This document shows positions 60,611-60,998 of a stretch of DNA of 64,000 bases, in pieces. The notes under the pieces are model-generated. The model ran no database searches. It saw nothing but the letters and a program-made list of their open reading frames with translations, and had not been told where the DNA came from. The position numbers and the translations under genes are program-made. The stretch comes from Escherichia coli. GTDB taxonomy: Bacteria > Pseudomonadota > Gammaproteobacteria > Enterobacterales > Enterobacteriaceae. The DNA lies in the NCBI RefSeq assembly GCF_050920415.1, contig NZ_CP169309.1. One strand, 5' to 3'. Positions within the stretch are counted from its first letter, which is position 1. Each line of letters opens with the position of its first letter.

Positions 60611-60998
60611 AACTACTTTTCACCTTTTTTGTGCGTCAAATCGTCGACGCGACGTGAACACGCGAAACTCACCTGCATAATGATGAGCAATTTCAGCGGT
60701 TTTTAACAGGCCGATTCTGCCCTTAATTCTGATGGGCGTGTTAGAAAAAAATGTGGTACAACAACTCAGGCAACACGCAAACGATTTACTCGTCGTATTT
60801 CAAATTGCATGTGCTGCGGCTACGTTCGTTCACCCCAGTCACTTACTTTTGTAAGCTCCTGGAGTTCACTCGCTTGCCGCCTTCCTGCAACTCGAAATCC
60901 ATAGAGTAAACAAACATCACCTTTCAGTGCGCTATTGCAGCCGCCTGAAAGAATAGTGTATCGACCTACATCACAGACCGCAGGAAAGGGTCAATATA

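Follow-up and report, generated by a model that had tools for sequence, protein, structure and literature searches.

The divergently transcribed genes ydiK and ydiJ of Escherichia coli are separated by a spacer of 388 bp in which no feature is annotated, K-12 (NC_000913.3) included, and the question raised by this locus is what a spacer of such a length contains. Its sequence is taken here from the window, that is, the whole stretch of 64,000 nucleotides of contig NZ_CP169309.1 (assembly GCF_050920415.1) that was analysed, and is 100% identical to that of strain MFDS1022581 and 99.0% identical to that of K-12. An earlier reading made from the letters of the window, which we call the sequence-only reading, regarded the spacer as longer than two promoters need, named two palindromic elements in it, could assign it to no known repeat family, and considered that it could hold regulatory-protein sites or a small transcript, or equally be plain promoter DNA. 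The coordinates and gene context given there are correct according to the open reading frame list and the RefSeq annotation, which also places rprA downstream of ydiK. The remark on length was well founded, too: among 80 species-level genomes in which the ydiK locus was compared, the divergent arrangement is kept in 79 enterobacterial species, and the spacer is typically 196-213 bp across them.

ERICs have been known since 1990, and E. coli copies have already been catalogued; the elements were reportedly described as ERIC, IRU or RU-1, 127-bp enterobacterial elements, by Sharples and Lloyd in 1990 and by Hulton et al. in 1991. We found that the excess length of the ydiK-ydiJ spacer consists of such an element together with 58 bp of other DNA. 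We put at about 0.87 the probability that the locus is an ordinary control region of about 213 bp into which an ERIC/IRU element and the 58-bp segment have been inserted, within the ydiJ leader and beside a PurR-type operator. The element is of a known kind and is present in K-12, where it is unannotated at this locus, and this copy has very probably been catalogued already.

Results

An ERIC/IRU element accounts for most of the excess length

The 126 bp at 60785-60910 are an ERIC/IRU element, a miniature inverted-repeat element (MITE; Table 1), so that, where the sequence-only reading could name no repeat family, a standard one is present. With the primer sequences given in PMC6066780, the ERIC2 PCR primer was matched at 21 of 22 positions on the minus strand (60827-60848), and ERIC1R was matched on the plus strand (60849-60869) with two substitutions and one deletion; the strand of the element transcribed within the ydiJ leader is the plus strand. 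No second ERIC was found in the 64-kb window. The 7-bp ends TTTACTC/GAGTAAA are perfectly complementary, and the 25-nt arms that they close (60785-60809 and 60886-60910) are imperfect, with 76% complementarity. As RNA, the element was predicted to form a single long hairpin from either strand, with a minimum free energy (MFE) of -58.3 kcal/mol (z = -8.9) on the minus strand and -35.9 kcal/mol (z = -4.1) on the plus strand.

The copy was aligned from end to end with eight other ERIC copies, among them those of the ybhI-ybhJ and preT-yeiS spacers, which are 86-88% identical to it, that of the ybtA-ybtP spacer of a plasmid-borne yersiniabactin cluster, and those of Enterobacter, Buttiauxella and Yersinia, and its identity to the resulting 9-copy consensus was 107/128. 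Copies in other genera were also recovered by profile search. Furthermore, of the 5426 complete E. coli genomes searched with sensitive BLAST, all but one (5425) had places related to the element, from 2 to 19 in number and with 12 as the median. In published work, ERICs are classed as MITEs and described as imperfectly palindromic, about 127 bp long, bounded by terminal inverted repeats with TA at the ends, and co-transcribed with neighbouring genes; their number in K-12 is estimated at 30 copies (PMC2229807, PMC3184786, PMC10969869).

The segment that follows the element, which makes up the rest of the excess, occurs once per genome and in exactly those 4255 genomes that carry the long form of the spacer described below. 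That it might be an oppositely oriented ERIC that has decayed and lost internal sequence was considered and rejected, since the 9-copy profile gave no match to it even at E = 100. Its local alignments to ERICs and to the inserts of other genera were no better than those of shuffled sequence or covered the shared ancestral tail only.

Table 1. Positions of features of the ydiK-ydiJ locus in the window (nt, nucleotides; K-12 positions and read counts are from Kim et al. 2012, PMC3415461)
Feature	Position	Strand	Details
ydiK, AI-2E family transporter	59498-60610	-	Open reading frame list and RefSeq annotation of a 100% identical genome
ydiK-ydiJ divergent spacer	60611-60998	.	388 bp, nothing annotated inside
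Stem-loop GCGTC-N8-GACGC in ydiK 5' UTR	60634-60651	-	Overlaps CGTCGACG; downstream of the ydiK start at 60672
Proximal ydiK promoter	60672-60682	-	-10-like CATTAT (60682 to 60677), start at 60672
ydiK transcription start	60672	-	K-12 1767036; 2 reads; 5' UTR 62 nt
ydiJ promoter core	60746-60770	+	Block AAAAAATGTGGTACAAC; extended -10-like TGgTACAAC at 60754-60762; start at 60770
ydiJ main transcription start	60770	+	K-12 1766938; 49 reads; 5' UTR 229 nt
Candidate PurR operator	60775-60790	-	AGTAAATCGTTTGCGT; +6 to +21 of the ydiJ mRNA
ERIC/IRU miniature inverted-repeat element	60785-60910	+	126 bp; terminal inverted repeats TTTACTC/GAGTAAA
ydiK 5' end inside the ERIC	60840	-	K-12 1766868; 3 reads; 5' UTR 230 nt
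ERIC motif UUCCUGC	60882-60888	+	Predicted pairing with the ydiJ Shine-Dalgarno region GCAGGAA (60980-60986)
Single-copy 58-bp segment	60911-60968	+	Holds CTTTCAG-N17-CTGAAAG (60921-60951)
ydiJ secondary 5' end	60919	+	K-12 1766789; 25 reads; 5' UTR 80 nt
ydiJ, D-2-hydroxyglutarate dehydrogenase	starts 60999	+	Open reading frame list and RefSeq annotation
ydiK 5' end inside ydiJ	61127	-	K-12 1766581; 4 reads; 5' UTR 517 nt

The insertion separates two E. coli alleles

In the survey of the 5426 complete E. coli genomes, the full 388-bp long allele was found in 4255 (78%). Another 1169 matching genomes, among them ST131 and O18:H1 isolates, align over 60611-60786 only, indicating that about 22% of these genomes are without the insertion. 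In one of them, strain Z226-6, the spacer is 213 bp long, and the 7 bp AATCTCT stand in place of the 182 bp at 60787-60968 of the window, a net difference of 175 bp. The dinucleotide TA is found near both ends of the element (60787-88 and 60907-08). Because the 58-bp segment is attached, the junction is not a simple TA duplication, and a target duplication is unreadable.

Citrobacter, Salmonella, Enterobacter, Klebsiella and other genera have spacers of about 196-213 bp in collinear arrangement with the short allele, pointing to the short form as the ancestral state; the 213-bp spacer, which is the modal length in the Enterobacteriaceae, is probably ancestral. As judged from these comparisons, the 388-bp spacer is best described as 213 bp of ancestral regulatory DNA plus a net insertion of 175 bp. 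The long allele is common to E. coli, E. albertii, E. whittamii and Escherichia sp. E1V33, and Escherichia sp. MOD1-EC7003 has the short form.

Variation in spacer length between species is located, without exception, just after a conserved block of the ydiJ promoter region (block B, see below) or nearby. Independent ERICs were found there in Enterobacter genomosp. O (opposite orientation, a clean gain of 125 bp at a TA lying another 5 bp downstream), in Enterobacter sp. JUb54 (L043), in an enterobacterial genome that bears the label Chryseobacterium sp. 18061 (two copies, of which one is in the ydiK leader), and in Citrobacter amalonaticus S646 (with an internal insert, and between block A and block B). 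L043 and a further locus of the comparison, L029, also appear to hold an ERIC that is oppositely oriented, decayed and internally deleted. The position after block B is also occupied by unrelated inserts in Kluyvera (+59 bp), Salmonella (+51 bp) and some Citrobacter (+87 bp).

The element is transcribed as part of the ydiJ leader

The transcription starts listed in Table 1 are taken from the genome-wide mapping of 5' ends of K-12 primary transcripts in Table S1 of Kim et al. 2012 (PMC3415461). They belong to K-12 and not to the window strain, and 60720 to 60795 are identical in both. The published 51-nt sequence maps to 60720-60770, which sets the main ydiJ start at 60770. Since this start is upstream of the ERIC, the element is transcribed as part of the ydiJ 5' leader, in which it occupies +16 to +141 of 229 nt, and it has no gene of its own. 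The secondary ydiJ 5' end lies 9 nt past the ERIC and could be produced by an outward promoter in the ERIC end or be a processing product. The ROSE supplement has no transcription start entry for this locus.

Two blocks upstream of and around the point of insertion are strongly conserved. Block A (AAAAAATGTGRTACAAC, 60746-60762) is 90-100% conserved in about 55 species, and block B (ACGCAAACGAT, 60775-60785) is about 99% conserved in 55 species at a fixed distance of 11-12 bp downstream of block A. Where the spacer is not expanded, no more than about 28-42 bp separate block B from the ydiJ start codon. The motif TGgTACAAC of block A is inferred to be the extended -10 element of ydiJ, with the start 8 nt after TACAAC. 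Block A was also considered as the start of a small open reading frame (ATG at 60751, 52 codons in the window), which was rejected because the second codon is TGA in most species (ATGTGATAC). No promoter was detected in the spacer when it was scanned with a simple sigma-70 consensus, and a heuristic position weight matrix (PWM) scan found weak ones only, the best sigma-70-like match on the minus strand being TTAAAA-18-CATTAT; the promoter positions, therefore, rest on the published transcription start data.

A small RNA of its own was the other kind of transcript to be weighed, namely an independent relative of Ysr49 or AS5 made from the minus strand across 60746-60911. In a permissive Rfam scan, the models RF02818 (V_AS5, Vibrio; 38.3 bits, E = 4.5e-6) and RF02766 (Ysr49, Yersinia; 32.3 bits, E = 9e-4) aligned over their full length to this strand, the hairpin of which is very stable, and the minor 5' end with 3 reads inside the ERIC lies on the same strand (PMC3415461). 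However, with gathering scores of 96 for V_AS5 and 95 for Ysr49, both matches fall far short of the family thresholds, and what they cover is the ERIC arms, which the consensus of the two families resembles. Consensus scans found no promoter-like or terminator-like site in the spacer, the -10-like TACAAT of K-12 reads TACAAA in the window strain, and the K-12 annotation shows no small RNA at this place. The opposite strand carries the dominant 5' end, with 49 reads against 3 (PMC3415461), and the Term-seq entries listed from part of a published source include no 3' end of ydiJ or the spacer (PMC7815308), which is weak evidence. An independent small RNA is, hence, very improbable. The small transcript that had been proposed is not borne out by sub-threshold Rfam matches, with no terminator-like site, at an ERIC that 5'-end mapping places inside the ydiJ 5' UTR. 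The simplest account of the likeness may be that the V_AS5 and Ysr49 RNAs themselves derive from ERIC-like repeats.

A candidate PurR operator straddles the boundary of the insertion

The proposal that the spacer could hold regulatory-protein sites is supported by a published binding region and by a strong PurR-type operator candidate. In a ChIP-chip analysis of PurR in K-12, Cho et al. 2011 reported a ydiJ/ydiK region (1766545-1767225 in older K-12 coordinates) with a log ratio of 1.08, with adenine only, and gave no motif for it (PMC3159470). According to the gene coordinates of Kim et al., this region contains the entire spacer, at a resolution of hundreds of base pairs. When the window was scored with a PWM built from the 28 published operators in Table 1 of Cho et al. 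(PMC3159470), the 16-mer at 60775-60790 of the long allele reached 18.4 bits and ranked first of 127,970 16-mers (P = 3.4e-7 per position), and the next best reached 12.3 bits. The published sites range from 8.4 to 24.6 bits in leave-one-out scoring, placing the long-allele site near the median. A search with an idealised PurR palindrome allowing up to three mismatches gave no match, the candidate having at least four. Judged by its motif, the 16-mer is a probable PurR operator.

Of its 16 bases, the four at 60787-60790 belong to the inserted ERIC end, which explains why the corresponding site of the short E. coli allele, GATTAATCGTTTGCGT, scores 12.3 bits: the weak distal half GATT is AGTA in the long allele, about 6 bits nearer to the PurR consensus. 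Sites of other genera without an ERIC score 13-17.7 bits, and where other genera carry an independent ERIC at this place, the site scores 10.6-12.1 bits. Taken together, block B is best read as an ancestral PurR operator, the distal half of which would have been rewritten by the ERIC end. The published peak without a motif is now assignable to a candidate 16-mer that straddles the ERIC boundary. With respect to function, YdiJ removes D-2-hydroxyglutarate made by SerA by oxidising it (PMC9504171), and PurR binds at glyA and gcvTHP (PMC3159470); a link between PurR and ydiJ through the serine-glycine-purine pathway is plausible.

Palindromes and leader structures

Both palindromes named in the sequence-only reading are present, as CGTCGACG at 60642-60649 and as CTTTCAG-N17-CTGAAAG with arms at 60921-60927 and 60945-60951, and neither rises above chance in 300 dinucleotide-preserving shuffles of the spacer. 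Perfect 8-bp palindromes numbered one against 1.62 expected, and inverted repeats with 7-nt arms and loops of at most 30 nt numbered two against 0.83 expected, which 21% of the shuffles reach. Other Escherichia species retain the second hairpin only in part. Far beyond chance is the inverted repeat formed by the 25-nt arms of the ERIC, which was absent from that reading.

The stem-loop in the ydiK leader that overlaps the first palindrome was evaluated across species. RNAalifold gave no consensus structure for the ydiK leader, because the register shifts, and the pairs were then counted for the named helix in an alignment of 36 species. As a result, 74.8% of cells were paired, compared with 19-46% when the partner was slid, and 20 cells were changed on both sides, compared with 9.1 in shuffles. 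The stem takes the forms GCGTCA/TGACGC, GCGCCA/TGGCGC and CGCCAG/CTGGCG across genera, and these counts lend moderate support to its conservation.

The 229-nt ydiJ leader was predicted to fold with -64.3 kcal/mol (z = -3.8 against shuffled controls). In its ensemble, the ERIC motif UUCCUGC pairs with GCAGGAA of the Shine-Dalgarno (SD) region with a predicted probability of 0.75-0.98. The SD of the short leader is also occluded, by predicted pairing with the early coding region, and the mean unpaired probability of the SD is predicted to be 0.14 in the long and 0.19 in the short leader; with accessibility so similar, no clear difference in translation is predicted. No intrinsic terminator or attenuator (a GC-rich hairpin followed by a T run) was detected in 60611-60998, the only match, at 61026-61045, being inside ydiJ.

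Discussion

The present analysis assigns 60785-60910 to the ERIC family, and this assignment explains the length of the spacer, the sub-threshold Rfam matches and the polymorphism between strains. The view that the whole region is plain promoter DNA, with inverted repeats arising by chance and no separate element, agrees with the chance-level occurrence of the two palindromes named earlier and with the left 176 bp being conserved promoter and operator DNA. It is next to untenable as a whole, given that a net block of 175 bp is missing from 1169 E. coli genomes and most other genera and that 126 bp of the block belong to a dispersed repeat family, and it is already refuted for 60785-60968. What stands of it concerns the first 176 bp on the left and roughly the final 30 bp, and the remainder is of another nature. 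Counting against our own reading, the junction is not that of a clean ERIC insertion, since 182 bp replace 7 bp and an extra 58 bp are included.

In the mechanism that we propose, the ERIC would be a passenger, inserted in the manner of a MITE into a TA, at a place 16-17 nt past the ydiJ start at 60770 and directly against the PurR-type operator. Its end would replace the weak distal half of the operator and so strengthen the match to the consensus. Any effects of the element would be exerted in cis on ydiJ only, by way of the structured leader and the pairing of UUCCUGC with the ribosome-binding site. Our best guess is that ydiJ expression would be somewhat lower, and its control by purines tighter, in strains with the long allele than in those with the short allele; that a measurable cis effect on ydiJ exists has about even odds.

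A further possibility is that the ERIC has been co-opted, such that its end completes the PurR operator, its RNA serves as a regulatory leader, and the long allele has been selected for purine-responsive control of ydiJ. The gain in operator score of the long allele (18.4 bits) over the short one (12.3 bits), which comes from 60787-60790, would fit this, as would the occupancy of the spacer by PurR in K-12, which is a long-allele strain (PMC3159470), the age of the long allele, which is common to several Escherichia species, and the predicted pairing between the ERIC and the SD. The plausible connection of YdiJ, via the D-2-hydroxyglutarate made by SerA (PMC9504171), to the pathway in which glyA and gcvTHP are bound by PurR is in the same direction. 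However, other genera reach 13-17.7 bits without an ERIC, indicating that the element is not needed for the operator, the sites beside independent ERICs at the same place score lower (10.6-12.1 bits), and 22% of E. coli genomes do without the insertion. We, therefore, regard co-option as unlikely. The same doubtful standing is given to the narrower proposition that the ERIC landed in a weak PurR operator, that its terminal bases made a consensus-grade site of it, and that the 78% of strains that carry it repress ydiJ more tightly than the other 22%. If true, a MITE terminus would have been co-opted in nature to serve as one half of a binding site for a transcription factor, ERICs would have a recurrent insertion target in roughly the first 20 nt of the ydiJ leader across the Enterobacteriaceae, and E. 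coli strains would have two naturally different ydiJ control regions. The two natural alleles provide a ready test of the effect of a 5'-leader MITE on operator strength or on ydiJ translation.

Comparison with known systems

The reading of the locus as a control region carrying an inserted ERIC/IRU element can be set beside several known systems. The candidate operator fits the motif of E. coli PurR operators, a 16-bp palindrome, ACGNAAACGTTTGCNT (Cho et al. 2011, PMC3159470), and AGTAAATCGTTTGCGT differs from the glyA operator, AGGTAATCGTTTGCGT, at two of 16 positions. It is unlike those operators in being downstream of the transcription start, at +6 to +21, instead of between -35 and -10, in not having been called as a motif by Cho et al. 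despite its high score, and in that one of its ends is transposable-element sequence. As for the V_AS5 and Ysr49 RNAs, the two models share with the minus strand of the ERIC an alignment over their full length, and differ in that this alignment scores only 38 bits (gathering score 96) and 32 bits (gathering score 95), respectively.

With ERIC/IRU elements, the ydiJ copy has in common its length (126 against 127 bp), both ERIC-PCR primer sites in the conserved core, an imperfect palindrome with 7-bp terminal inverted repeats, a transcribed intergenic location, dispersal through the E. coli genome in about a dozen copies, and polymorphism for presence or absence between strains. It differs in its ends, which are TTTAC...GTAAA where the usual ones are TATAC...GTATA, a symmetric pair of changes, in one internal 1-bp deletion, and in being joined to a 58-bp non-ERIC segment. 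ERICs of Yersinia reportedly have an orientation-dependent effect on mRNA stability through RNase E (De Gregorio et al. 2005, as reviewed in PMC2229807 and PMC10969869). The ydiJ-leader ERIC resembles them in being co-transcribed with its neighbour and in forming a long hairpin, and beside them its second 5' end, just past the element, is to be noted; the Yersinia elements covered by these reviews are downstream of or between genes, whereas the present one is in a 5' leader.

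Insertions in the ydiJ leader

Comparison of the ydiK-ydiJ spacers of other genera indicated that the first ~20 nt of the ydiJ leader, directly after the conserved ACGCAAACGAT block, is a repeated insertion target. This observation was made at the fetched loci L051, L043, L046, L021, and L029, and also at L017/L022, L011/L023/L025, and L027. At least five independent ERIC insertions were found, in both orientations and one with an internal insert, and L029 and L043 possibly retain ERIC remnants. Unrelated inserts of 51–87 bp were present at the same site in Salmonella, Citrobacter, and Kluyvera.

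In E. coli, the ERIC of the ydiJ leader was linked to a single-copy segment of 58 bp (60911-60968) in 4255 of 4255 genomes, and no relative of this segment was detected in any comparison made. The presence of this segment shows that a single, simple ERIC insertion step does not account for the long allele.

Transcript 5' ends near or inside the ERIC

In K-12, a second ydiJ 5' end is represented by 25 reads at 60919 on the + strand, and a minor 5' end, assigned to ydiK, by 3 reads at 60840 on the – strand (Kim et al, 2012, Table S1, PMC3415461). The former lies 9 nt beyond the ERIC end, and no convincing −10 element was found at the right distance from it; it could reflect an outward-directed promoter located in the terminus of the ERIC or, alternatively, transcript processing at the boundary of the element. 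The latter starts within the ERIC loop region, with a −10-like TACAAT in K-12, the corresponding sequence being TACAAA in the window strain.

Conserved elements on the ydiK side

The stem-loop in the ydiK 5' UTR was found to be kept across Enterobacteriaceae with compensatory changes, pairing being retained in 74.8% of cells compared with 19–46% when the partner was slid, and both sides being changed in 20 cells. No Rfam family matched it. The AT-rich block CATAATGATGAGCAATTTC, which is replaced by TGATAATAATATCAATAAT in Klebsiella- and Kluyvera-type species, matches the Fur-box consensus at 14 of 19 positions, and the suf operon, which is Fur-regulated, is near this block.

Features on the ydiK side of the spacer and downstream of ydiK
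Feature	Position	Strand	Remarks
Stem-loop	60634-60651	–	ydiK 5' UTR, preceding the Shine-Dalgarno sequence by ~12 nt
AT-rich block	60676-60694		Conserved; overlaps the ydiK −10 element
sRNA gene rprA	~59205-59312	–	Downstream of ydiK; annotation of the identical genome NZ_CP169399.1, coordinates carried over from fetched locus L001

ERIC copies elsewhere in E. coli

A further ERIC copy was located on the E. coli plasmid pH222-1 (fetched locus L004, 1379-1568) in the ybtA-ybtP spacer, which holds the divergent promoters of the yersiniabactin genes; since the match falls into two parts, this copy probably carries an internal insertion. Detectable relatives of the ydiJ-leader ERIC numbered 3–6 in short-allele genomes (e.g., ST131 and O18:H1) compared with 10–17 in most long-allele genomes, suggesting that the ERIC load differs between E. 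coli lineages.
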